NCBI GenBank assembly: GCA_012925625.1
Contig: GCA_012925625.1_3625.1
From: a phage
DNA length: 32,536 nt
Direction: 5' to 3' (one strand)
Part shown: piece by piece, positions 6,855 to 20,027 of the stretch
Position numbering within the stretch: the first letter of the stretch is position 1
Layout of the letters: every line of letters begins with the position of its first letter
Program-made: the position numbers and the translations under genes
Notes under the pieces: generated by a model
Databases searched by the model: none
What the model was told of the DNA's origin: nothing
Seen by the model: the letters and a program-made list of their open reading frames with translations, nothing else

Positions 6855-6872
6855 TTTCTTAACTAAACTATC

Positions 6873-6900
6873 AGGGGCTTTAAAAGGCCCCTTTCTTTTT
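6873..6900 (+). terminator. intrinsic terminator GGGGCTTT-aa-AAGGCCCC + TTTCTTTTTG
   Basis: 8-bp stem with T-tract; ends the plus-strand transcription unit. Confidence 0.65.
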
Positions 6901-7517
6901 GTCTGTATTTCTCCTACCACAAACGGCCCTACCTGGCAAATGGAATAATTGACGAGCCATCAATCCCACACACTGTACAAATATACATGTAAAATAGCTA
7001 TTGCATAACCTTTCATTGTGTGGTAGCGGTGCTATTTTTTACCCGTTTTCCTTCCAAAGTTGCACGTAATGCAGTTATTGCACAAAATTTAACCTGATGC
7101 ACATCTTCAATACCTTGTCAACAACTAAAAATCTTTATAAGTCATACACTTACATAACCACAAAAGCGTGTTCTACGCGAAAAATCGAGTATAACTATAG
7201 CCGCCAGATCTCAGAATTCACGTACGCACGCCATTCTATAGCCTGCAAAGTATTTATTCCAACCACAGAATAACGGAATAGTCAATACCTGCATAAAATA
7301 ATTATTCGTGTAAACTGCATAACATAAATCAGCTCAGGTGTCAACATTTTTCGTAAACAGTCCGAAATTATCACGATGAGTTATCATAAACAGAGAAATC
7401 TTTAGTCGTCTAATGTTTACTGTACATTACTATACTGACTGGAATCATTAGATGACTAAGAGAAAGATAAGAAATAATTAATAATGTAATTATTTTACCT
7501 GTAACAATAAGGCAACT

Positions 7518-7750
7518 ATGCAAACGAATGGCATGGCGCGACGGAGTCGCGACATAATATAAAAGCAGTAACCATCACCCCCGTGATAGTTTGTCTGCAA
7601 ACTATTAATCAGATCATAGTTGCCTTGTATTTAGTTAATCATGACATAACAAGCAAGGCAACTATAGATCTTCTAATAGTTGCCCTGCTTTTATATTATG
7701 TCATATATTATTATCTTGTTAATTGTTTTCATGCAAACGAATGGCATGGC
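7518..7750. repeat. two copies of a 20-mer direct repeat ATGCAAACGAATGGCATGGC (7518-7537 and 7731-7750) bracketing an inverted-repeat cluster
   Basis: Exact 20/20 identity read directly from the sequence. Confidence 0.7.
7586..7684. repeat. cluster of ATAGTTGCC/GGCAACTAT inverted repeats, with further copies of the 9-mer at 7511-7519 and 7676-7684
   Basis: Palindrome ATAGTTTG-tctg-CAAACTAT (7586-7605); 12-bp inverted repeat ATAGTTGCCTTG (7616-7627) / CAAGGCAACTAT (7654-7665). Confidence 0.65.
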
Positions 7751-7851
7751 TTATCATATCTGCGTGAACAGTCTATGCATAAACAGTGAGATATGGAATA
7801 GTAACAATTGTTATTGTGTGCCAGATAAGTTTTGTCATGAAGTGCTTAAGG

Positions 7852-7879
7852 TGTCAAAAGTGACAATTTTGTCAGACAA
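7852..7879. promoter_or_regulatory. paired TGTCA/TGACA palindromes (TGTCA-aaag-TGACA and TTGTC-a-GACAA), operator-like
   Basis: Two perfect short palindromes 4 nt apart; further TTGTCA copies at 7833 and 7895. Confidence 0.35.
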
Positions 7880-8171
7880 GTTTTTCTCCTCTTTGTCAAG
7901 TGCTGCATGAAAAATTTACAATCTGGTATGGTAGCATTTTTGCGGCCCCGTTTACATTCAGTGATGTATGTATAAGCCTTGTTGTGTGGGCGTTTAGACG
8001 TCTAGACGGTTGGAAGTCCACAGGTCAATATCTAATCTATCGGCTGCTAACTATATCCCACACAAATAGTAAGAAATATAATTGTTATGCGTGTAAACAG
8101 TAACTCATGGTATCAATCCCTGTATGTATCGCCAGTGGTGCGCATAATAGGTATTATGTTAAATTGCCCGT

Positions 8172-8206
8172 AATGATAACTATTCTCACAATGATAGGTA
8201 TTCTCA
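8172..8206. repeat. iteron-like tandem repeat AATGATA(AC/GG)TATTCTCA x2, with related ATAGGTATT copies at 8148 and 8222
   Basis: Two 17-mers with 2 mismatches at an 18-bp period. Confidence 0.55.
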
Positions 8207-8401
8207 TTCACCCCCGCAAGATAGGTTGCAAATGTTGTGCCACTGTGTGAACGGCCTGGCCTATTAATTTGCCTCACTGCCTCGATATTTGAGAATTATT
8301 ATAAGAATGAGAAGTATTCCCATTTCGTCCGCCTGGCAGCACTCCAGTCGCTACCGCTCATGACAGGGCAGAACTGGGTCCATTCAGATATTTCTGGCTG
8401 A

Positions 8402-8634
8402 CTCTTCAGGCCTGTGTGGGAAAAGCCAACCTCTCCGGCGGCGGGGAGGGGTTTGTCAGGAAAATTGCAGGTCAATTAAAAAATTTACGGGGTATATGAA
8501 GCGCTCTTCAGATAAGGCATGTATTATGGGATGAAACCCTCTTCAGGCAATGATATTTGTGGGTGTGATATTTGCTGGAAAGCCAGATATGACGGGACTC
8601 CCGGCGGGGCAGGGGTAGTACAGACAGGGAAAAT
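8402..8634. repeat. duplicated G-rich element: copy A 8402-8464, copy B 8540-8634
   Basis: Both copies run CTTCAGG...GTGGG...AAAGCC...CTCC(C)GGCGG(C)GGGG(C)AGGGG...CAGG(G)AAAAT in the same order. Confidence 0.55.
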
Positions 8635-9312
8635 ATGGAGGATGTGGTTGGGTAAATTGATCAGGCAGGTAGAGTATGGAATATGTTACAGGTATGTTAA
8701 ATAGGGAGGCTGAATATCTGTAGGATTTGTGTGTAAAATCAAAGACTTAAGTGGTGTTGTGGTATTTTCTATAAATAATTCAAGTTTAATAGGTAATATT
8801 TGTCTCTATCCGCTTTGTGTGGTAAACAAATTCAGATGGTGTTGGTTTACAAGTGTATACATAATATACAAATTAAAGATACAAGAAACCCCCCCTCCCC
8901 CTTCGGCTACCATTCACCTTTTCCTCTGACTGGTACTTAAACACTTATTCAGACTCTTCAGGTTATCACCCATATATCATATGGCAGTGACTGGTGTCCT
9001 CCGGCCCCTCTTTCGTCACCCGTCCGCTTCGCCATGCTAATGCCATAGCCAATGGTTCGGTTGTTCACCCTGTTCACTCAGGTGTATCTCCATACCCCTT
9101 CAAACCGAAGAGAACAGAAAACCCGAATTACTCGGTAAAAGAAAAGAGAAGAACTTAATTTTATCAGGATAGGCAAGAATGTCAAGGCATGACTGCTCAC
9201 TAAACAAGCAAACAGTCATGTGTGGGAGGTAAGTGATTGTGGTGGTGGGAAATTTAGTTGAAAGATGTGTTATAGGTGCTTCCAGCACTTTAGCCGGGCA
9301 GCTAATTGTGTG

Positions 9313-10222: not shown

Positions 10223-10534
10223 CTATACCCATGAGGGCTTATCAAGGTTGGAGTAGCTAAAAGGTGTCAAAAGGTGACTGTCAAAATCTCTCAAACTATC
10301 CAAATCTTTTTCCTCGTCCTGACACCATCTGTGCCTACATTTATTGTTGTAGTGCATAGAATGCATAGCGTTCTGCAACTTAACAGGCACAATTGATTCA
10401 GGAGTAGTTAGTATTGTTGGGTATGCCAGAACCACCTCAAACAGTGGAAACACATCGAAACTAAAATCTACCTCTGCAGAGGTTGATGGCATGTAGGAGT
10501 ATTTAGCCGTCTTTGTAGACATAATCCACCTCAC
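10223..10534 (-). CDS. hypothetical protein (103 aa)
   Basis: ORF; start overlaps upstream stop (ATGA-type coupling). Confidence 0.55.
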   Translation of the reverse strand: MRWIMSTKTAKYSYMPSTSAEVDFSFDVFPLFEVVLAYPTILTTPESIVPVKLQNAMHSMHYNNKCRHRWCQDEEKDLDSLRDFDSHLLTPFSYSNLDKPSWV

Positions 10535-11926: not shown

Positions 11927-12010
11927 TCACTGAAATACAAGACACAGTGTTAAGGTTACTGACCAGCAAATAATTAACAGTGCCGTTGCAACCTTGGCAA
12001 GATTTATCAT
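11927..12010 (-). CDS. small hydrophobic peptide (27 aa), not in ORF track
   Basis: MINLAKVATALLIICWSVTLTLCLVFQ; ATG immediately after upstream stop; RBS GAGG. Confidence 0.3.
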   Translation of the reverse strand: MINLAKVATALLIICWSVTLTLCLVFQ

Positions 12011-12294
12011 AGTGCCTCTAAGATTTCATATCCTTCGGGTCGGAATACAAGCCACTCCGTGGCTCCGTTTGGTCGATACGCTTTATACAGAACAACCTGA
12101 TCTCGGCACATGCACATAGCTACATAGTTTTCATCCACACCTGCAGCCTGCATTGCAGCTTCTTCTCCGGCAACTGCTTTGCTTACAACCTCCTTGGTAG
12201 GCAGGTGTGCGATCAGCTCGTCACCATCATTAATTCCAAAATGGCTGAGCTCTCCATTGGTATCTTTAATCTTAATCTTAACCAGATCTTTCAT
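12007..12294 (-). CDS. small acidic protein, member of the paralogous array (95 aa)
   Basis: ORF; tightly coupled to neighbours; ends in acidic EILEAL tail. Confidence 0.55.
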   Translation of the reverse strand: MKDLVKIKIKDTNGELSHFGINDGDELIAHLPTKEVVSKAVAGEEAAMQAAGVDENYVAMCMCRDQVVLYKAYRPNGATEWLVFRPEGYEILEAL

Positions 12295-12623
12295 TAGTCT
12301 TCCTCCAGGTTCAAAGGCCCTAAGATTTCATATGCCAGATTAGAAGTTACCAGAGGGTCTTCTGCATCTTTAGTATTATACCACCCGTGAATAACCAGAG
12401 TCCCACTCTGTTTCATATCCAACTGGAACTGTTCTGCAGTTTCCTCATCCATCTCTAAGATCTCCATGAGGTATTTGATGTTAGGAAGGTATGCAGCTGT
12501 TACAGTTCCCTCCACCAAACCTTCGGGCCAACCTACATCTGGATGACAAGTAGGAACCAGGTTGGTCAGCTTAATGGTGTACGCTTTTTCTGCACGAGCC
12601 TTCAGTAACGGGTCAATCTTCAT
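12294..12623 (-). CDS. small acidic protein (109 aa)
   Basis: ORF; overlapping stop/start with both neighbours. Confidence 0.55.
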   Translation of the reverse strand: MKIDPLLKARAEKAYTIKLTNLVPTCHPDVGWPEGLVEGTVTAAYLPNIKYLMEILEMDEETAEQFQLDMKQSGTLVIHGWYNTKDAEDPLVTSNLAYEILGPLNLEED

Positions 12624-12973
12624 TATTCGTCCTCCTCTTCGGTGCCTGCTTCCAGTAATAAGTTAAGAATATCTTCTGCACAAGGCTCATAGAACTCTTG
12701 GCCTTCATTATCGATGATTTTGTAGTCATCTCCACGAATAATCAGAGGATCACTCTCAAAATTATCGAGACCTTTAACAACGACAACACGATCGATTGCC
12801 ATCATTGTAAGAACTTTATCAACATCTTCCTCTGCTACACCATACTGCAGCAGAATGTCTTTGGTAGGAGGAACAGCATCCACCACAACACCGTTACCAA
12901 AACCTTCCGGCAATTTAGATAAAATATCTTCCGGAACCGCATTCACATCAAAACCGGTAATTTCTACTTTCAT
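12623..12973 (-). CDS. small acidic protein (116 aa)
   Basis: ORF; MKVEITGFD N-terminus and acidic C-terminus. Confidence 0.55.
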   Translation of the reverse strand: MKVEITGFDVNAVPEDILSKLPEGFGNGVVVDAVPPTKDILLQYGVAEEDVDKVLTMMAIDRVVVVKGLDNFESDPLIIRGDDYKIIDNEGQEFYEPCAEDILNLLLEAGTEEEDE

Positions 12974-13234
12974 TTACAGCACCTCTTCGTCGACTACTTC
13001 ATAAAAATGGCTTGGGATTGCAATAGCGTTCTCACCTTCACCTACAAACACAGTTCCGTCAAGAATCAACATCATAAGAATTTCTGGAATATCCTCTTCC
13101 GGAACGTTGCCAAAACCTTTAATCAGCGTGTAGGTTGGAAGATTTACCTCTAAGATGTCACCATCTTTAGAACGGAAATCTACACCGTCCTGAATCTCTG
13201 CCGTTTCAAGGTTTTTCAATTTAATCTTCATCAA
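12974..13234 (-). CDS. small acidic protein, MK(I/V)K paralogue family (86 aa)
   Basis: ORF; N-terminal MMKIKLKNL and C-terminal VVDEEVL shared with paralogues. Confidence 0.55.
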   Translation of the reverse strand: MMKIKLKNLETAEIQDGVDFRSKDGDILEVNLPTYTLIKGFGNVPEEDIPEILMMLILDGTVFVGEGENAIAIPSHFYEVVDEEVL

Positions 13235-13310
13235 TCGGTCTCCTGTCTTGTTAAGATGAAGGTATTATTTCACACAGGGTTGGCGTTGTCAACACCTGTG
13301 TGCAAGAAAA

Positions 13311-13706
13311 TTACTGAAACAGTGCGGATAAATTACCTTCTGGTGGAAACTTATCTGCCAAAAACGGTGTTAGCACAGTAGCCTTCTGAAGATCTGGGGT
13401 CCACTCGTTGTTCAGAACATCCCAGTAGTACGCAATGTTGCTGTGTGGGTGCCGCATTACGAACTTTTTCCCTTCGTAGTCATCTGAAACCTCTACAGAA
13501 GAAATAACAACAGAATCTTCAAGGGTTTCTTCATAGAAAGATCCACCTTCAAATTTCCAACGAGATGCAAGAGCCCCTGCCTTGAACGCTGCAGATAACG
13601 GACTGTCGGCAAGAACATACATTTCTTGCACTCTGTCGCTGCGATCTTTGCTTCTTACGTTGTATACAGTATCTGAGCTATACTCAACACGGTATAGTCT
13701 TACCAT
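13311..13706 (-). CDS. hypothetical protein, paralogue of 15522..15920 (131 aa)
   Basis: Shares FV(M/I)xHP(H/D)S...(Y/H)YW(D/N)...(E/T)WTP with 15522..15920. Confidence 0.6.
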   Translation of the reverse strand: MVRLYRVEYSSDTVYNVRSKDRSDRVQEMYVLADSPLSAAFKAGALASRWKFEGGSFYEETLEDSVVISSVEVSDDYEGKKFVMRHPHSNIAYYWDVLNNEWTPDLQKATVLTPFLADKFPPEGNLSALFQ

Positions 13707-14038
13707 TACCGCACCTCCTCAATAACTTCCACATCTGAACCTACCACAAATGCAAAAGGACAGGTTTCATGAAAGACATCCGGATCGCCGCCAAGCTTGC
13801 TAACAATTTCTCCACCACTAATAAACACAAGCTCACCGATATTCATCAGATTGCTGAAATAGTATCCATAATGATTAAAGAATGCAGCAGGGTCAGGTAA
13901 GCTAGTAGCCTCAAGTTCTACATCGTTTGAGATTACTTTCTTATCATAACCTCTCGCCTTCTGAGATGCAAGATCTGCAGAATCTTCAGGCGACCGGAGA
14001 TGCACAGGAATTGTTTCACCAATAAATCGTACTTTCAT
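13706..14038 (-). CDS. small acidic protein (110 aa)
   Basis: Start placed at internal ATG 14038 (RBS GGTGAG), directly after upstream stop at 14043. Confidence 0.5.
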   Translation of the reverse strand: MKVRFIGETIPVHLRSPEDSADLASQKARGYDKKVISNDVELEATSLPDPAAFFNHYGYYFSNLMNIGELVFISGGEIVSKLGGDPDVFHETCPFAFVVGSDVEVIEEVR

Positions 14039-14042
14039 ATTC

Positions 14043-14306
14043 TCACCCAACAACCATAGCTTCAAAAGGAGTCATGAACGAATAAACGGCATCATCATCT
14101 GCTTCAGGGAATGCTCCCAAAGACTTCATGTCTGAGCCCTTGACAAATACAAGGTTTTGATCAAAAGCTTCTTGGGGATCAATCCGATACATATCTCGTA
14201 GAATATCGCTTACCTCCTCATCAAGAGGTGAGTATGCTGTGCACGTTTTTCCGATCAAGCTTTGAGAATCAGGGTATCCACCTGAAGTTTTAAAATAAAC
14301 AATCAT
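14043..14306 (-). CDS. small acidic protein, paralogue family (87 aa)
   Basis: ORF; shares GK...VKG.D..S.GA pattern with 15933/16177/19794. Confidence 0.55.
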   Translation of the reverse strand: MIVYFKTSGGYPDSQSLIGKTCTAYSPLDEEVSDILRDMYRIDPQEAFDQNLVFVKGSDMKSLGAFPEADDDAVYSFMTPFEAMVVG

Positions 14307-14401
14307 ATAGTATCACCTCTGGCAAGAGATGGGGATTCCTTTCCCACAAATAATTACAAACTTTTCTTTTTATTGAGAGAAGTATGCTAATCCAAGCAGG
14401 A

Positions 14402-14671
14402 TTACTCTTCTACAATCTCATACACATCAGGAGTTACAATCAACTCTTCTCCGTTACCCGGTGCAACAAACACCACCAAGCCTTCAGGTGTGTGCTTTTT
14501 AGCCATCTCGATAACATCTTCTCGCAGAGCTGGCTCCATCAGATCAAAGCCTTCACCCAAGGCATCACGAACTACCTTCATGTAGTCCACTGGTTGTGCT
14601 TCAACGATCATGCCTTCAACCAGTCCACAGTTTTTGTCTGCCAGCTCAGTTTTGAATAATTTAATTTTCAT
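14402..14671 (-). CDS. small acidic protein, MKIK paralogue family (89 aa)
   Basis: ORF; N-terminal MKIKLFKTEL and C-terminal EIVEE. Confidence 0.55.
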   Translation of the reverse strand: MKIKLFKTELADKNCGLVEGMIVEAQPVDYMKVVRDALGEGFDLMEPALREDVIEMAKKHTPEGLVVFVAPGNGEELIVTPDVYEIVEE

Positions 14672-14697
14672 TTAGAGGTCTCCTCAATTATTTGATA

Positions 14698-14799
14698 TTA
14701 ATAGCCGTAACCTAACACATTAACTACAACTGCGATTGCAAACATAATTTCAAAGCATGCAATCTCTACATTTGGGACTAATTTCTTAATCACACCCAT
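14698..14799 (-). CDS. small hydrophobic peptide (33 aa), not in ORF track
   Basis: RBS GAGGTG 6 nt upstream; MGVIKKLVPNVEIACFEIMFAIAVVVNVLGYGY; start region overlaps the HPF gene 3' end. Confidence 0.3.
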   Translation of the reverse strand: MGVIKKLVPNVEIACFEIMFAIAVVVNVLGYGY

Positions 14800-14808
14800 T
14801 GTAGCACC

Positions 14809-15129
14809 TCATTCTCCAAAGTCAATCTTTACTTTGCCTTTCCCCTTACCTTTCTTTCCACCGCATTTAGCCAGCTGACGTGCTGCAACATCTACCATAC
14901 GGTCAGTTGCCTCGTAAGCATCACTGCCTTTAGCCTTGGCAATAACTTCTTTTCCAGAATTGTCAAAAATGAACGCCATAACTTCCTGGTGATCATTTTC
15001 AACTTTTACACTCACACGTGCATAGTTAACAGAGGGATGTAAACGCTCCAGCTTGGACATTTTGCGGGAAATAAAAGATACCATACCTTCTGTGATTTCT
15101 ACATTGTTGCCAGTGATTTCAATTTGCAT
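14809..15129 (-). CDS. hpf: ribosome hibernation promoting factor / RaiA (S30AE family) homologue with Lys/Gly-rich C-terminal tail
   Basis: N-terminus MQIEITGNNVEITEGM...KLERL...VSVKVE...DAYEATDRMVDVAARQLAK matches the recalled E. coli HPF pattern MQLNITGNNVEITEAL...KLEQYF...VVLKVE...DMYAAIDGLIDKLARQL; RBS AAGGAA. Confidence 0.8.
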   Translation of the reverse strand: MQIEITGNNVEITEGMVSFISRKMSKLERLHPSVNYARVSVKVENDHQEVMAFIFDNSGKEVIAKAKGSDAYEATDRMVDVAARQLAKCGGKKGKGKGKVKIDFGE

Positions 15130-15213
15130 AACGTGTTCCTTTTAAGGAAGAGGGAATAACTATCTCTCTTTGAAAACAATGATACTAAATCTGAAGCGTT
15201 GTGTCAACAGTTT

Positions 15214-15504
15214 TTACAGCTTGTTGTCGATAGTTTTTAAAATATCCACAGCAAGATCTGCCATTTTTCGAACATACTCTGCAAACTCAACAGGATCCTT
15301 GATCAAAGAATTCACAGGGTCGTACCCTAGAGCGTTTAAAATGGCTGCAGCATCTACAACCTTCTCATCATTTGCGAAGATCTCTCCGTCAAACTTGTAG
15401 GTCCATTTTGAGTCAACCTTAGCAGAGCAGGGTTTGTCCATGCTTGTTACACCATCGTCTTTAAACTCTCCTGCGTTATCAATATTTAGAATTAAATCCA
15501 TCAT
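15214..15504 (-). CDS. hypothetical protein (96 aa)
   Basis: ORF in track with a plausible RBS. Confidence 0.55.
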   Translation of the reverse strand: MMDLILNIDNAGEFKDDGVTSMDKPCSAKVDSKWTYKFDGEIFANDEKVVDAAAILNALGYDPVNSLIKDPVEFAEYVRKMADLAVDILKTIDNKL

Positions 15505-15521
15505 GGTGACACCTCACTGTT

Positions 15522-15920
15522 TCAGTTTAGCTTTTCTTCAACAACCCCATAACTTGGGGCAGAGTCAAGAGCTTTCTGGTTTAAAAGTGGCGTAGCAGAA
15601 TCTGCAAACGGTGTCCAAGTTTTTGTTCTGGCATTCCAGTAATGCTTCACTCTGGAATCTGGATGCACTATAACAAAAACTTTTTCACTTGTCAACACAT
15701 TAATTTCTTCTACACCCTTGCTGATAATTTCTCCGTCATAGCCCCCAGTCTGGTATCCTTCGTACCAGGTTCTTGCATAGGCATAGCCAGCCTGCCAGCA
15801 TGCAGCCTCCTCCGAGGTGGAGACTACGTAGAAGTCTTTCTCAAATTCTGGAATACGCCCTTGCTTTACGCTCCAAGCCCCGCGAATTTTCATTGTAACT
15901 TTAAACAGTTTATTTTTCAC
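15522..15920 (-). CDS. hypothetical protein, paralogue of 13311..13706 (132 aa)
   Basis: Shared motif block with 13311..13706. Confidence 0.6.
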   Translation of the reverse strand: MKNKLFKVTMKIRGAWSVKQGRIPEFEKDFYVVSTSEEAACWQAGYAYARTWYEGYQTGGYDGEIISKGVEEINVLTSEKVFVIVHPDSRVKHYWNARTKTWTPFADSATPLLNQKALDSAPSYGVVEEKLN

Positions 15921-15932
15921 AACGGTTACCCA

Positions 15933-16187
15933 TCACAGCTCTACAATATCTGCATCTGACCCTACCCCAAAGGCATAGTAGGACTCTTCCCCGAAATAAT
16001 ATTCAGGTGCACCAGCGGTGATCAGGTCTGATCCCAAGATAAACACCACGTTGTGGCCTACATAACTGTGATGTTGCCGCACAGGATCATCCCACGGCAA
16101 CCCTTCAAAGTATACCGCAGGAACGACCTTTCCATTCAGGAAGGATTGTCCCAAGTAGACGTTAGAATCAAGAATTTTAACCTTCAT
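15933..16187 (-). CDS. small acidic protein, MKVK paralogue family (84 aa)
   Basis: MKVKILDS...GKVV...GSDLITAGA closely resembles 16177 and 19794. Confidence 0.6.
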   Translation of the reverse strand: MKVKILDSNVYLGQSFLNGKVVPAVYFEGLPWDDPVRQHHSYVGHNVVFILGSDLITAGAPEYYFGEESYYAFGVGSDADIVEL

Positions 16188-16404
16188 GATCGTCCTCCAC
16201 TACCTCTACATCCTCACCTAGGGCAAAGTTATAGGTCCACTGACTGTCAAAGCATTCCTGAGATGCACCAGCGGCAATAAGATCTGCTCCTTTTATTTTT
16301 AAAAGGTCAGGGTAATCTTCGTTAGGGACAGCAGTAAACACTTTACCCACTAAAGGCTCCTGACCAATATAGAAGCTTGAATCTAAAACTTTAACTTTCA
16401 TCAA
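16177..16404 (-). CDS. small acidic protein, MKVK paralogue family (75 aa)
   Basis: MMKVKVLDSS...GKVF...GADLIAAGA...EDVEVVEDD. Confidence 0.6.
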   Translation of the reverse strand: MMKVKVLDSSFYIGQEPLVGKVFTAVPNEDYPDLLKIKGADLIAAGASQECFDSQWTYNFALGEDVEVVEDDHEG

Positions 16405-16682
16405 CGGTCTCCTTCAGGTGGTTGGGGGACGTAAACACTGTTACGAATCTCGTCAGCAGTGTAGTAGCAGGTTTTTCCAGCCCTGTCCCTAGCAGCAATA
16501 TATTCAGCTATACCTATAAGCGCCATAGCTTTGGTGGCATATCTCCCTAATTCATCTGCTCCCCAGTAGAATTTAGACCAATATGGGATAAGTCCAAACA
16601 AATATACCTTTTGTCTCACTTCCCAATAGGTCTCCTTACTACACACCTTGAACTCCACATCTGTATCGCAAATCTTTTTCAT
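16401..16682 (-). CDS. hypothetical protein (93 aa)
   Basis: Start moved to internal ATG (MKKICDTD...) immediately after upstream stop, avoiding an 85-nt overlap. Confidence 0.5.
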   Translation of the reverse strand: MKKICDTDVEFKVCSKETYWEVRQKVYLFGLIPYWSKFYWGADELGRYATKAMALIGIAEYIAARDRAGKTCYYTADEIRNSVYVPQPPEGDR

Positions 16683-16684
16683 TA

Positions 16685-16978
16685 CTAGTCCTCTTCTGTG
16701 GTTGGATTGGTAGTAAGATATTGTGCATTGGCCGGAGGTACACCAGACATCTTCCACACAATCATACATTTATACCCAGGAATTCTCCTAAAAGATGCTC
16801 CTGAGGTATCCGTGCAGGAATATTTCCGTTTACCGAACCCGTTCTCAAGCATGATCCAGTATCCCGTGTCTTTATCACCTGGAATTGGTAATCCCTCATC
16901 GTCCACCCACTGAATGGACCACGGCACGATGGCTACAGCTTTATATTTAAACTTTTTAAACCACTCAAAAAGTTTCAT
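16685..16978 (-). CDS. hypothetical protein (97 aa)
   Basis: ORF in track. Confidence 0.55.
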   Translation of the reverse strand: MKLFEWFKKFKYKAVAIVPWSIQWVDDEGLPIPGDKDTGYWIMLENGFGKRKYSCTDTSGASFRRIPGYKCMIVWKMSGVPPANAQYLTTNPTTEED

Positions 16979-16981
16979 AAT

Positions 16982-17071
16982 TCAGCCTCGCATAGACATA
17001 ATCACTATAAACAGGCAAACAATGAATCCGAATGCCACGCCACCCATAAACGTTAATATTGATGCAATCAT
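16982..17071 (-). CDS. small hydrophobic peptide (29 aa), not in ORF track
   Basis: MIASILTFMGGVAFGFIVCLFIVIMSMRG; RBS GAGG about 10 nt upstream; wedged between two genes. Confidence 0.35.
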   Translation of the reverse strand: MIASILTFMGGVAFGFIVCLFIVIMSMRG

Positions 17072-17073
17072 AG

Positions 17074-17259
17074 TCAATCAGCCTCGCTTGGCAACTCTTC
17101 CACCTTAACATGCCGAAAAGTGTTACCGTAATGGTTGATCCATGACATCAGCTCACTTTCTTGCTCTTCCTCTGGAATGAACTCTCGAATACTGACAAGT
17201 TTTAAGAAAACCCAATCACAATCTGCACCCATTCTGCCAGACAGACAATAGTGCTTCAT
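17074..17259 (-). CDS. hypothetical protein (61 aa)
   Basis: ORF in track. Confidence 0.5.
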   Translation of the reverse strand: MKHYCLSGRMGADCDWVFLKLVSIREFIPEEEQESELMSWINHYGNTFRHVKVEELPSEAD

Positions 17260-17278
17260 AAAAACCCTCCATCCTGGT

Positions 17279-17479
17279 TTAGAATACTGCCTCTTTTAAT
17301 GATCCAAGGAGCAGCAGGTGTGAAATCTGATCCACATTCATGGTAGATTCAATCTCCTCTCCTTTGAAAGGTTCTCGGCAAAACAGTACTACATTCGGGT
17401 TTTCGCTACGCACTATATAATACAGATCGTTCAAATCATTCTCATAGTAGGTATTAAATTTAAGAATTTTGTCACTCAT
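17279..17479 (-). CDS. hypothetical protein (66 aa)
   Basis: ORF in track; overlaps upstream stop. Confidence 0.5.
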   Translation of the reverse strand: MSDKILKFNTYYENDLNDLYYIVRSENPNVVLFCREPFKGEEIESTMNVDQISHLLLLGSLKEAVF

Positions 17480-17763
17480 TTTCTACTCCTCTTCTTAGAT
17501 TTTTGGGGAGAAACGCTTTCTGCAATACGAGACAAACGTTCTTCTGAAGCCTTGCCTATTCCAGGTTTTTTGAGTGGATTATCTTTATGACCACAATCCA
17601 ATTGGATATCGGATACCTCTCCAACCTTGTAAGTCAATTCTAGCAAAAGGTTGTCGTCCTTGTCAAATGTTTTTACGATAAATTTTTTATCGTCCTCCTG
17701 AACTTCATACCTAGTACCTGCGGTATACAGCATGGTGCCATCAGTGTAGGATATCCAAATCAT
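17476..17763 (-). CDS. hypothetical protein (95 aa), basic C-terminus
   Basis: ORF in track; coupled to neighbours. Confidence 0.55.
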   Translation of the reverse strand: MIWISYTDGTMLYTAGTRYEVQEDDKKFIVKTFDKDDNLLLELTYKVGEVSDIQLDCGHKDNPLKKPGIGKASEERLSRIAESVSPQKSKKRSRK

Positions 17764-18107
17764 TGCACCTCCTTCTGCTGCAACAGCATTAACTCTTTGT
17801 TGGAAATCTTTACTGCTGTCTTTATTGTTCCATCTTCACGGAACCACGACCAGAATTCCACAGTGTCACCACTATCAAGCAAGGCATGACCATGGTAAAA
17901 ATCCTTGTCCTTAGACAGTTTCTCATCTATATCTGCATCAACACATTCGTGATCCATAGCATTTTGCCTGAATGCATCGGTTATGCCAATGCATGCCTTG
18001 CTCTCAAGACTGGTATATCCGATATCTTTTAATTCAGTTTCCCAAGTCCAGTATCCTACAAAAGCTACAACAGCTGCCCACATTAATACCGACTTAATCT
18101 TTGGCAT
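17760..18107 (-). CDS. hypothetical protein with N-terminal signal/TM segment (115 aa)
   Basis: N-terminus MPKIKSVLMWAAVVAFVGYW is hydrophobic. Confidence 0.55.
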   Translation of the reverse strand: MPKIKSVLMWAAVVAFVGYWTWETELKDIGYTSLESKACIGITDAFRQNAMDHECVDADIDEKLSKDKDFYHGHALLDSGDTVEFWSWFREDGTIKTAVKISNKELMLLQQKEVQ

Positions 18108-18167
18108 TCTCTCTACCTCTTTCTTAGTTTATTTAATCATGGCACATCCTTTGTGCCTTGTTGCACA

Positions 18168-18629
18168 CTACTTGAACAACAGTTCAAGATAGTGCAAAAT
18201 TAACAGAAGTTGAATTACGCCTAGCACAACGGCGAGTATGTTAATCTTAGAATCAAAAAACTTCTTAACTTTTACCCTAAAAGGCTCTTTAATGTCCTTT
18301 ACGATCCTATTTATAGATGATTTCATATCCCTGATTACCATCCTAAACATTAGAGACGGATCCTCCTTCTCTGTAACAGAATCGAAAACATACTCTCTTC
18401 GGTCATAAGGCCCTCCAGATCTGCGTATTAACCTCTCCACAGAGACCTCGTACGACACACCTGTAACGTAATCATCTATGACAAGTAGTGACGGGTCTTT
18501 ATCATCCAAGGGTATCAAAGTTATCTTTCCAGATTTTGTTAAAATTTCTCCTTTTTCAAGCAAGGTGTACCAATGCTCTCTACCAAGGTTGTTGAGGCAC
18601 GTTTTTACATATTTAACAAACATCGTCAC
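18168..18629 (-). CDS. hypothetical protein with C-terminal TM anchor (153 aa)
   Basis: C-terminus ILAVVLGVIQLLLILHYLELLFK is hydrophobic. Confidence 0.55.
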   Translation of the reverse strand: MTMFVKYVKTCLNNLGREHWYTLLEKGEILTKSGKITLIPLDDKDPSLLVIDDYVTGVSYEVSVERLIRRSGGPYDRREYVFDSVTEKEDPSLMFRMVIRDMKSSINRIVKDIKEPFRVKVKKFFDSKINILAVVLGVIQLLLILHYLELLFK

Positions 18630-18811
18630 CCCTCATCACACGTCTGATATAACCATTCTATGAAATCTTGATACCACTCTCCCTCTGAGCGCTCCGTAGG
18701 CCAATAATCTTCCCCCTCTCTTGCATTAAAATCTGAGTATTCAACTTTCCACTCCTTTACCAGCTCGTGGAGAAGGTTTTCAGCCTGTTCTAAGGATTTA
18801 TTTTTTGTCAT
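18626..18811 (-). CDS. hypothetical protein (61 aa)
   Basis: Start at ATG 18811 (MTKNKS) with RBS AAAGGGGACAGTA; the track start is a TTG further upstream. Confidence 0.5.
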   Translation of the reverse strand: MTKNKSLEQAENLLHELVKEWKVEYSDFNAREGEDYWPTERSEGEWYQDFIEWLYQTCDEG

Positions 18812-18917
18812 TACTGTCCCCTTTTTCAAGATAATTATACATTAGTGCCGCACCACCCAAAATGGCTACCAGCAGTAATACTCCGGAGAGCATTTCAATA
18901 AACATGGCTTGAAACAT
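18798..18917 (-). CDS. small membrane peptide (39 aa), not in ORF track
   Basis: RBS GAGGTGA; TM segment MLSGVLLLVAILGGAALM; 3' end overlaps next gene start. Confidence 0.35.
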   Translation of the reverse strand: MFQAMFIEMLSGVLLLVAILGGAALMYNYLEKGDSNDKK

Positions 18918-19031
18918 TAGAAGGTCACCTCTAATTTCACGCACCATTTTAAATACACACTCTTTTCCCATGAAGATACTGAACTAAGGTCTGTATAGAA
19001 TGCAATCTCCCTAAGAACAGTATAAACAGTT

Positions 19032-19268
19032 TCAGTCACTGTTACCATTCTTATCTGCCTCCTTCATTTTTCTGACGGTTTTACAGTGATCTACCAAGCA
19101 CATAACAACAATGAAGAGAACGACAGGCCAAAAAGGTGCGGCAGTGATTATAGTTATAAAGTCGTCAAACTTAATTTTTCTACAAGATATGATGCAAAGA
19201 GTTGCTAAAACAACCATTGTCAGAAAGGTCAATGCGCAATACCAAACCAACACAGTATCTATGGCCAT
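19032..19268 (-). CDS. small membrane protein (78 aa, two TM helices)
   Basis: Hydrophobic segments LVWYCALTFLTMVVLATLCII and APFWPVVLFIVVMCLV. Confidence 0.55.
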   Translation of the reverse strand: MAIDTVLVWYCALTFLTMVVLATLCIISCRKIKFDDFITIITAAPFWPVVLFIVVMCLVDHCKTVRKMKEADKNGNSD

Positions 19269-19269
19269 A

Positions 19270-19797
19270 TTACATCTCCTGGTTCAAACTGTTAAGAAAG
19301 GATACTCTGTCTTCGCTATTTTTCTCTGTGATATACCCTCCAAACATGGAAAGAATCACATGCTTCAAGTAATCTTTTTCTGGGTCGCTTAGATGATTGC
19401 GTGGCTTTATTTCCACATCATGGTAGTCATACAATCCACAATCATGATACCCCCAGTATCGACACACCTCAATACTGATCGGGAGTTTTTTGTCACACGA
19501 AACTTTCCAACGGGTTACGTTGTTACCAGGGGATAAATCCTCGCCCACCTTCACGAATGACAAATCGTAATTCATAAACTTTTCGTACAGTTTAAGTACA
19601 AAACCCTCTACCTGTGGAGAAACACCAGCCACTAGCTGGGCGTATCTATATTTACTTTCAATAATTTTTCGGCGCTTTGCTGTAAGGTTTATTGCAGCAA
19701 TTTGACTCTCTGAGTATCTCCAAGGCTTATATATAAATGCTTTCGGGTCTTTATCGCCATAAAAATCTTTCCAATCAACCAGTAGCATACCTGTCAC
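19270..19797 (-). CDS. hypothetical protein (175 aa)
   Basis: ORF in track; overlaps upstream stop. Confidence 0.6.
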   Translation of the reverse strand: MTGMLLVDWKDFYGDKDPKAFIYKPWRYSESQIAAINLTAKRRKIIESKYRYAQLVAGVSPQVEGFVLKLYEKFMNYDLSFVKVGEDLSPGNNVTRWKVSCDKKLPISIEVCRYWGYHDCGLYDYHDVEIKPRNHLSDPEKDYLKHVILSMFGGYITEKNSEDRVSFLNSLNQEM

Positions 19798-20027
19798 TCC
19801 TCCACAACTTCAAGGCCTTTGCCGCCTCGTTCTGGTAGATTACTTAAAGACAGGTAATACGTATAGTCAGGAGAGATCCTGCCAGACTCTGCACCTGCAG
19901 ATAGTAAATCTTTTCCCTTAACCATGACAACATTATCGTTTGCAGATAGTCGTTTTGCTTCCACAATTTTACCAACGCAGTCAACCAAGGAAGGGTACCC
20001 TAAATCTGTAAGAAATTTAACTTTCAT
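19794..20027 (-). CDS. small acidic protein, MKVK paralogue family (77 aa)
   Basis: MKVKFLTDLGYP...GKIV...GKDLLSAGA...LEVVEE. Confidence 0.6.
   Translation of the reverse strand: MKVKFLTDLGYPSLVDCVGKIVEAKRLSANDNVVMVKGKDLLSAGAESGRISPDYTYYLSLSNLPERGGKGLEVVEE

Follow-up and report, generated by a model that had tools for sequence, protein, structure and literature searches.

Twelve small genes of a Vequintavirus form three paralogous families, two of them predicted SH3-like barrels, with a possible host-specific role

Introduction

Large lytic phages are well known to carry clusters of small accessory genes whose roles are host-specific, and in lambdoid prophages the interval between the Q antiterminator and the holin gene is a classic slot for accessory genes. 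Phages related to rV5 are often found in sewage and see wide use in cocktails for phage therapy and biocontrol, yet for most of their genes the annotation is still "hypothetical protein". Here, we describe an array of twelve small paralogous genes, falling into three repeated families (A, B, and C), in an 8-kb stretch of an rV5-like phage contig of 32,536 nucleotides (GenBank assembly GCA_012925625.1, contig GCA_012925625.1_3625.1; "the window" hereafter, with coordinates counted from its first letter). On balance, we lean toward the reading that the array encodes accessory proteins with a host-strain-specific role, either neutralizing host defense or fitting the phage to a host factor that varies.

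The closest described system comes from the same genus. A preprint introducing HIDEN-SEQ (doi 10.1101/2025.11.20.689424) reports transposon sequencing of the Vequintavirus Bas54 (phage MaxBurger, MZ501093) and shows with knockouts that bas54_0140 and the MoxR ATPase gene bas54_0063 are needed against DS-28, a predicted defense system of the uropathogenic isolate CFE311. The ortholog of bas54_0140 in the window (10223–10522, minus strand; rV5 ORF160) lies 1.5 kb outside the array, in the same direction and in the same unit; it belongs to none of families A, B, and C and has no Pfam or NCBIfam match.

Results

The window belongs to a Vequintavirus, an rV5-like coliphage. Its 8-kb array region shares 99.2% identity with Escherichia phage ECML-10 and 94–98% with rV5, JES2013, and other Vequintavirus genomes, with 122 phage records matched. 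Every gene in the window from about 9.1 kb onward is on the minus strand, and the array corresponds to rV5 ORF127 to ORF154, all annotated as hypothetical except ORF144, a homolog of the ribosome hibernation factor (RaiA/HPF). We name the genes by their lower window coordinate (Table 1). Family A has five members (19794, 16177, 15933, 14043, and 13706), as does family B (14402, 12974, 12623, 12294, and 12007), and family C has two (13311 and 15522); the order A-A-C is seen twice, in 16177-15933-15522 and in 14043-13706-13311. Scanning the entire 138-kb ECML-10 genome in six frames returned exactly five A, five B, and two C genes, none of them outside the block. The block lies within the long rV5 unit 82–163, with nucleotide-metabolism genes beside it. 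The A and B proteins, ten in all, are acidic (pI 4.05–5.4), nine of them with a net charge of −6 to −21 and ORF127 with just −1. The main text of the rV5 genome paper (PMC3606486) does not mention the paralogs, and the virion mass spectrometry described there lists gp133 and none of these proteins.

The families were delimited by all-against-all BLASTP of the 62 minus-strand open reading frames (ORFs), in which the strong pairs were 15933 with 16177 (E 4e-14), 16177 with 19794 (E 6e-7), and 13311 with 15522 (E 7e-10), and by profile searches. Genes 13706 and 14043 showed weaker BLASTP links to the group of 15933, 16177, and 19794, and a profile built from that group, with the pattern MKVKxL…GKV…GxDLxxAGA…EVVEE, retrieved these two and no other ORF. 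Similarly, a profile of 14402, 12974, 12623, and 12007 retrieved the omitted B member 12294. When each protein was left out in turn, it was the top match to the profile of its own family, at E 1.6e-15 to 2e-6 in A (runner-up at E of at least 0.009, and 0.14 or higher in all but one of the five tests) and at E 8e-6 to 5e-3 in B (runner-up at least 0.05). With a B paralog omitted together with all its orthologs, every paralog still beat 2000 of 2000 composition-matched shuffles, the thinnest margin being that of 12974 (11.9 versus 11.4 bits). The C pair is 28% identical over its full length.

Existing family collections capture part of this. In PHROGs v4, phrog_5009 (unknown function) matches 15933, 16177, and 19794 over the full length of the profile, 14043 weakly (E 1.2e-4), and 13706 not at all, and phrog_7379 (unknown function) matches each C protein across 131 of 131 profile positions. 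Genes 14043 and 13706 and the B members are spread over singleton-like families (phrog_13920, 13661, 11868, 12359, and 12155), so that the wider paralogy was missed. Pfam searches at E up to 1, which included the KOW and SH3-clan models, gave no family for any A, B, or C protein; NCBIfam gave no match for any of them, and a sequence search of the PDB gave nothing below E 0.24.

A preliminary description of this stretch had proposed one family of at least six genes sharing four motifs, as well as the pair 13311 and 15522, and had held that the idea would fall if the similarities lay within compositional noise. The ORFs it named are all present on the minus strand, as hypothetical proteins in rV5-like phages, and the pair stands. 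Four of the six (15933, 16177, 19794, and 14043) do belong together as family A, whereas 12974 and 14402 belong to B. The four motifs occur together in 15933, 16177, and 19794 and are degenerate in 14043, and the combination is absent from 12974 and 14402, which lack the GK and GxDLxxAGA blocks. The list was also incomplete, having passed over the A member 13706–14038 and the B members 12623, 12294, and 12007. As to noise, the similarity within family B exceeds that of shuffled sequences, and a merger of A with B lies within noise at the sequence level. Judged from these comparisons, the paralogy is real, but the families are three and not one.

To relate the array to phenotype, we mapped the Bas54 genes to the window through the annotated record and took values from Extended Data Table 8 of the HIDEN-SEQ preprint; the conditional data concern the comparison of K-12 with CFE311. 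On K-12, insertions were tolerated in all twelve orthologs, nine of which are classed as "non-essential" and three, bas54_0151, bas54_0152, and bas54_0153 (13706, 14043, and 14402), as "intermediate" (doi 10.1101/2025.11.20.689424). On CFE311, zero reads were found in bas54_0150 (13311, family C; log2 fold change −6.77), bas54_0151 (13706, family A; −6.17), and bas54_0152 (14043, family A; −7.16), each with an adjusted p reported as 0. The other C gene, bas54_0157 (15522), was down fourfold (log2 fold change −2.14, adjusted p 0); bas54_0153 (14402) was reduced, not significantly, and the remaining A and B genes were unchanged (doi 10.1101/2025.11.20.689424). In these data, the A-A-C unit of 14043, 13706, and 13311, and less so 15522, is dispensable on K-12 and required on CFE311; A and C would probably work together in at least one unit.

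Polarity is unlikely to be the whole cause of this depletion, since genes lying just upstream of affected ones were neutral. This was seen for bas54_0141, 8 nt upstream of the required bas54_0140 (log2 fold change −0.32), and for bas54_0158, upstream of bas54_0157, on CFE311; the authors of the screen, too, argue against widespread polarity (doi 10.1101/2025.11.20.689424).

The recurrent gene order could also be explained if each A-A-C group were a self-contained module whose small A proteins regulate or neutralize the larger C protein, like an antitoxin or chaperone, and do not themselves act on the host. The order does occur twice, the 14043-13706-13311 unit is translationally coupled, and its three genes are all co-required on CFE311. 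However, in the 16177-15933-15522 unit only the C gene is affected, both of its A genes being neutral. K-12 tolerates insertions in A genes, hence C is not overtly toxic without A, and A is found without C in prophages and in other phages. We consider this explanation improbable.

The distribution of the three families is uneven. An exhaustive profile search with family A against 1.84 billion representative proteins (E up to 1e-3) found 63 relatives, about 50 of which were retrieved and 34 aligned; nearly all of those about 50 show the pattern MKVKLL..GGY.G...GK.V.A....I.G..LI.AGA...F....Y.F..G.E.E[VI]VEE. In a few proteins the domain is repeated in tandem, with two or three copies, and in one it is fused to DUF3310. 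We discounted two long matches, P0069 (Ig repeats) and P0080 (CARDB), as probable false positives. Of the cultured phages, those of the genus Vequintavirus alone have several A copies, and single copies occur in the lambdoid phage mEp554, MagusPhagus, Vibrio phage CHOED, and a Proteus phage. In lambdoid prophages of E. coli, an A homolog occupies the interval from the Q antiterminator to the holin and has no B or C partner there; one such protein, P0031, has 75 aa and 309 sequences in its 90% cluster and is listed at NCBI as "hypothetical protein [Escherichia coli]". The searches that were run traced B relatives only to rV5-sized contigs (about 120–140 kb) or to short metagenomic or E. coli contigs resembling Vequintavirus, and C relatives to Vequintavirus records only. 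A locus search with the C pair gave near-identical loci alone, and a word-indexed homolog search gave near-identical orthologs only.

Of this genus, the phages rV5, Bas53, Bas54, Bas55, and Bas57 each have all twelve genes. Their orthologs share 88–100% amino-acid identity, with ratios of nonsynonymous to synonymous polymorphism (pN/pS) of 0.01–0.41, mostly 0.05–0.15, similar to the 0.08 of the neighboring HPF gene. The paralogs are old and each is conserved separately under purifying selection; the earlier characterization of them as "diversifying" does not hold for the present-day genus. Comparison of copy number among related phages, which had been put forward as a check, gave a constant count in these five phages and an exception in two natural metagenomic Vequintavirus contigs (L016 and L017, 3001–3213 in each), where one 70-aa ORF140N::ORF141C fusion replaces both genes. 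The fusion junction falls inside a 30-nt repeat that encodes a conserved motif (Table 1), which makes this repeat a likely crossover site between the tandem ORF140 and ORF141.

That the ORFs are spurious or decaying and have no function would agree with the absence of functional annotation anywhere, yet this notion is refuted and keeps almost no credibility in view of the purifying selection, the conservation in about 120 genomes, the Shine-Dalgarno-like motif at every start except that of ORF142, the confident predicted folds, and the conditional phenotypes.

A weightier competitor, which we nonetheless hold to be unlikely, is that the proteins are general modulators of host takeover or phage development, acting for example on the host RNA polymerase, the ribosome, or a protease; paralog redundancy would then mask their role on K-12, and the CFE311 effect would reflect physiology. 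The "intermediate" class of bas54_0151–0153 on K-12, where control reads are below those of their neighbors, fits this account, as does the position of an array that surrounds the ribosome hibernation factor homolog and has ClpP-like and PhoH-like genes nearby. The orthologs are also strongly conserved, unlike many fast-evolving anti-defense genes. On the other hand, insertions are fully lost on one natural strain and tolerated on K-12, though less than in neighboring genes, and single A copies scattered in unrelated temperate and virulent phages are typical of mobile accessory genes and not of core regulators. We favor a host-strain-specific role because the trio is required on CFE311 and tolerated on K-12, because an anti-defense gene lies in the same unit, and because family A is scattered in unrelated phages.

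Structure prediction had also been suggested in the preliminary description, and it gave confident models for both A and B. AlphaFold2 was run on alignments of paralogs and orthologs, with ORF140 (16177) modeled for A and ORF146 (14402) for B, and both are predicted with high confidence to be stand-alone SH3-like beta-barrels. The ORF140 model (pLDDT 91.8) has strands at residues 2–5, 21–23, 33–37, 56–61, and 65–69 and a short helix at the GxDLIxAGA motif. The ORF146 model (pLDDT 91.2) has strands at 2–5, 22–27, 66–69, 76–79, and 84–88, with three helices (residues 30–60) inserted between strands 2 and 3; the A members 14043 and 13706 have inserts at the same loop. Each model forms a barrel of five strands and superposes on solved SH3, KOW, or PsaE domains, which places it in the SH3-like small beta-barrel class, and the two have the same SH3, KOW, and PsaE neighbors, with about 33 of the top 60 in common. 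A BFVD fold search returned uncharacterized phage proteins and nothing else.

Whether this likeness reflects common descent is a separate matter. Profile-profile comparison of A with B by hhalign gave a probability of about 2%, the aligned part being the first 25 residues alone, and cross-family HMM scores (empirical p 0.02–0.4) did not exceed what unrelated small proteins of the region achieved; together, the profile-profile comparison and the cross-family shuffle controls led us to reject a single family of six or more. A deeper relationship, in which all ten A and B proteins descend as one superfamily from a single SH3-like ancestor and B is the branch with the helical insert, has a substantial chance of being correct, one that we would place somewhat short of even. 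It would account for the common fold and the largely shared PDB neighbors of the two models, for the insert between strands 2 and 3 that B has in common with 14043 and 13706, for the first strand MK[VI]K… found in both families, and for the adjacency of all ten genes in one block; in one test, moreover, the three core A proteins were the runner-up to the B profile (E 0.05–0.35). Besides the low hhalign probability and the cross-family scores, it has to contend with the great frequency of SH3-like barrels, with an acidic tail that is partly a by-product of Shine-Dalgarno sequences, and with the absence of the GxDLxxAGA helix from B. The fold and insert position predicted by the models are compatible with a distant common ancestry of A and B and are no proof of it.

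The acidic tail deserves explanation. A Shine-Dalgarno-like motif lies at most 14 nt upstream of each start, that of ORF142 excepted; adjacent array genes are translationally coupled, and a check of the gene junctions agreed with the tight packing and overlapping stops and starts described earlier. The last codons of 12294, 12623, 12974, 13706, 16177, and 19794 carry the Shine-Dalgarno sequence of the next gene (for example GAGGAG, read as Glu-Glu). Overall, seven of the ten A and B genes have such a motif in their last codons, and in six of these the next start is at most 1 nt from the stop; after the seventh, 12007, the next gene is 89 nt away. Across the whole window, genes with the next start within 12 nt have 1.87 acidic residues in their last six positions versus 1.11 in other genes (one-sided Mann-Whitney p 0.01). 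Shine-Dalgarno sequences inside the last codons thus bias C-termini toward acidity and can mimic a shared protein motif, which weakens the acidic C-terminus as proof that A and B descend from one ancestor. Within family A, the tail E-x-E-[VI]-[VI]-E-E is kept across distant members, and the acidic tail is therefore a real trait of that family.

Table 1. Genes of families A, B, and C and associated sequence features, in window coordinates
Feature	Coordinates	Strand	Remarks
Family A, rV5 ORF127, bas54_0166, 77 aa	19794..20027	-	phrog_5009 E 8.5e-36; leave-one-out E 3e-7
Family A, rV5 ORF140, bas54_0159, 74 aa	16177..16401	-	phrog_5009 E 1.8e-38; modeled protein of family A
Family A, rV5 ORF141, bas54_0158, 84 aa	15933..16187	-	phrog_5009 E 3.7e-32; start overlaps end of ORF140 by 11 nt; blastp versus 16177 E 4e-14, 40% identity
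Family C, rV5 ORF142, bas54_0157, 132 aa	15522..15920	-	phrog_7379 E 4.3e-74; blastp versus 13311 E 7e-10
Family B, rV5 ORF146, bas54_0153, 89 aa	14402..14671	-	modeled protein of family B
Family A with insert between strands 2 and 3, rV5 ORF147, bas54_0152, 87 aa	14043..14306	-	profile of three core A members E 1.8e-7; leave-one-out E 5.8e-9
Family A with long insert, rV5 ORF148, bas54_0151, 110 aa	13706..14038	-	profile of three core A members E 2.8e-6; leave-one-out E 2e-6
Family C, rV5 ORF149, bas54_0150, 131 aa	13311..13706	-	phrog_7379 E 2.4e-66; final gene of the tightly coupled ORF147-148-149 unit; ATG overlaps ORF148 stop by 1 nt
Family B, rV5 ORF150, bas54_0149, 85 aa	12974..13231	-	first gene downstream of promoter P150; leave-one-out E 5e-3, top match
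Family B with extra acidic C-terminal tail, rV5 ORF151, bas54_0148, 116 aa	12623..12973	-	leave-one-out E 1.5e-5; 31.3 bits versus shuffle maximum 9.2
Family B, rV5 ORF152, bas54_0147, 109 aa	12294..12623	-	E 1.5e-5 to profile built without it; shuffles 0/2000
Family B, bas54_0146, 95 aa	12007..12294	-	leave-one-out E 7.8e-6; 23.0 bits versus shuffle maximum 7.4; split as ORF153 + ORF154 in rV5 annotation, single gene in BASEL phages
Sigma-70-type promoter-like site, rV5 "P150"	13264..13292	-	TTGACA-17-AATAAT, extended -10 TG, 11/12 matches; upstream of the four-gene family B run; promoter in rV5 record too
Sigma-70-type promoter-like site, rV5 "P144"	15179..15207	-	TTGACA-17-TATCAT, 11/12 matches; upstream of the in-array ribosome hibernation factor gene; promoter in rV5 record too
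30-nt DNA repeat encoding GxDLIxAGA in ORF141	16005..16034	.	partner 16261-16290 in ORF140, 80% identical, 256 nt apart

Several features of the surrounding sequence were recorded along the way. The ribosome hibernation/sigma-54 modulation factor homolog in the middle of the array (14809–15129, minus strand; Pfam Ribosomal_S30AE, E 4e-15) has its own near-consensus sigma-70-type promoter upstream, and its Bas54 ortholog is non-essential on K-12 and neutral on CFE311. At the position of rV5 ORF128 (19270–19797, minus strand; "putative glycosidase" in BASEL annotations), the window and ECML-10 carry a divergent allele, of which about 40% can be aligned to the rV5 and BASEL phages at about 70% amino-acid identity, with the flanking genes at 94–100%; this looks like a local replacement. 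Bas54 (locus L012, between bas54_0160 and bas54_0161) lacks about 2 kb holding rV5 ORF133–138, including the virion-associated gp133, which the window retains at about 17000–18630, so that the region between the two parts of the array is variable among Vequintavirus genomes.

Further from the array, about 2.2 kb between two convergent gene blocks (about 6855–9100; GC dip to 0.36) yielded no convincing ORF and no Rfam match. The rV5 paper refers to the equivalent region as "non-coding" (PMC3606486), and the Bas54 screen recovered zero insertions in it (doi 10.1101/2025.11.20.689424); the region may thus have an essential non-coding role, for instance as a replication origin. Finally, eighteen records MG0656xx ("Campylobacter phage", host Campylobacter jejuni) are about 95% identical to the array region (94.5–94.9% in the rows listed); this is unexpected for the stated host and suggests mislabeling or contamination.

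Discussion

Our analysis points to a set of small proteins with a probable role on particular host strains. Given their SH3-like fold, their small size, and the absence of a catalytic signature, the A and B proteins would act by binding other proteins and not as enzymes, and since each paralog is old and separately conserved, each may have a distinct partner. A more specific version, which we offer tentatively, is that the A-A-C unit of 14043, 13706, and 13311 is a previously unrecognized three-protein counter-defense module, made of two SH3-like barrels and a 131-aa partner and directed against an immunity determinant of CFE311, with the other nine paralogs being stored binders against further host factors that the strains tested so far do not represent.

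Several observations weigh against a host-specific role. The CFE311 phenotype comes from one pooled screen, in which residual polarity on bas54_0150 may have contributed, and eight of the twelve genes have no phenotype in the comparison of K-12 with CFE311. For bas54_0151–0153, the "intermediate" class on K-12 reflects fewer TA sites hit and lower reads, so part of the role of these genes may be general and not specific to defense. The preprint itself is silent on the array genes and matches DS-28 to bas54_0063 and bas54_0140 only (doi 10.1101/2025.11.20.689424).

The preliminary description had suggested functions in host interaction or anti-defense for the array. Host interaction gains support for 13311, 13706, and 14043, which lost all reads on CFE311, and for 15522, which fell fourfold, and gains none there for the other eight. 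The anti-defense idea can at present only be inferred, as the published match to DS-28 concerns two genes outside the array.

What the analysis adds can be stated briefly. Twelve "hypothetical proteins" now fall into three defined families, with predicted folds for A and B, and they are linked to an existing dataset in which the need for one coupled trio on a clinical isolate had gone unremarked. This provides a concrete, testable lead to a new host-range or counter-defense determinant, as well as a small natural system for studying how phages expand and maintain a set of SH3-like binders.

Among described systems, the genes most like the A-A-C trio are bas54_0140 and bas54_0063, which share with it the genus, the dispensability on K-12, and the loss on CFE311 in the same screen; bas54_0140 even belongs to the same transcription unit. 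They differ in that their cognate system, DS-28, was shown with knockouts, whereas the A-A-C genes are known from pooled insertions. A second point of reference is the lambdoid "morons" between the Q antiterminator and the lysis cassette, where the family A homolog P0031 sits and of which mEp554 also has one. There, unlike in the array, A is single-copy and without a B or C partner.

The acidic DNA mimics (T7 Ocr, ArdA, and T4 Arn) resemble the A and B proteins in small size and strong acidity, with the exception of ORF127. However, A and B are predicted to be compact beta-barrels and not elongated DNA-like folds, and no Ocr-, ArdA-, or Arn-type protein is found among the structural neighbors of their models. 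Vequintavirinae have been reported to be exceptionally susceptible to restriction-modification systems (PMC8594841), which counts against an anti-restriction role by DNA mimicry, despite the acidity.

In predicted fold, the nearest relatives of A and B are the SH3-like barrels of Spt5/NusG KOW domains, PsaE, the retroviral integrase C-terminal domain, and eukaryotic SH3 domains, to which the array proteins are 4–25% identical, without a Pfam KOW or SH3 match. Two elements, the GxDLxxAGA helix in A and the three-helix insert in B, lie outside the canonical SH3 fold, and the array proteins, compared with these systems, stand alone and are acidic. Taken as a whole, the array is no surprise in kind: clusters of phage accessory genes are familiar, and this is a new and better-defined one.

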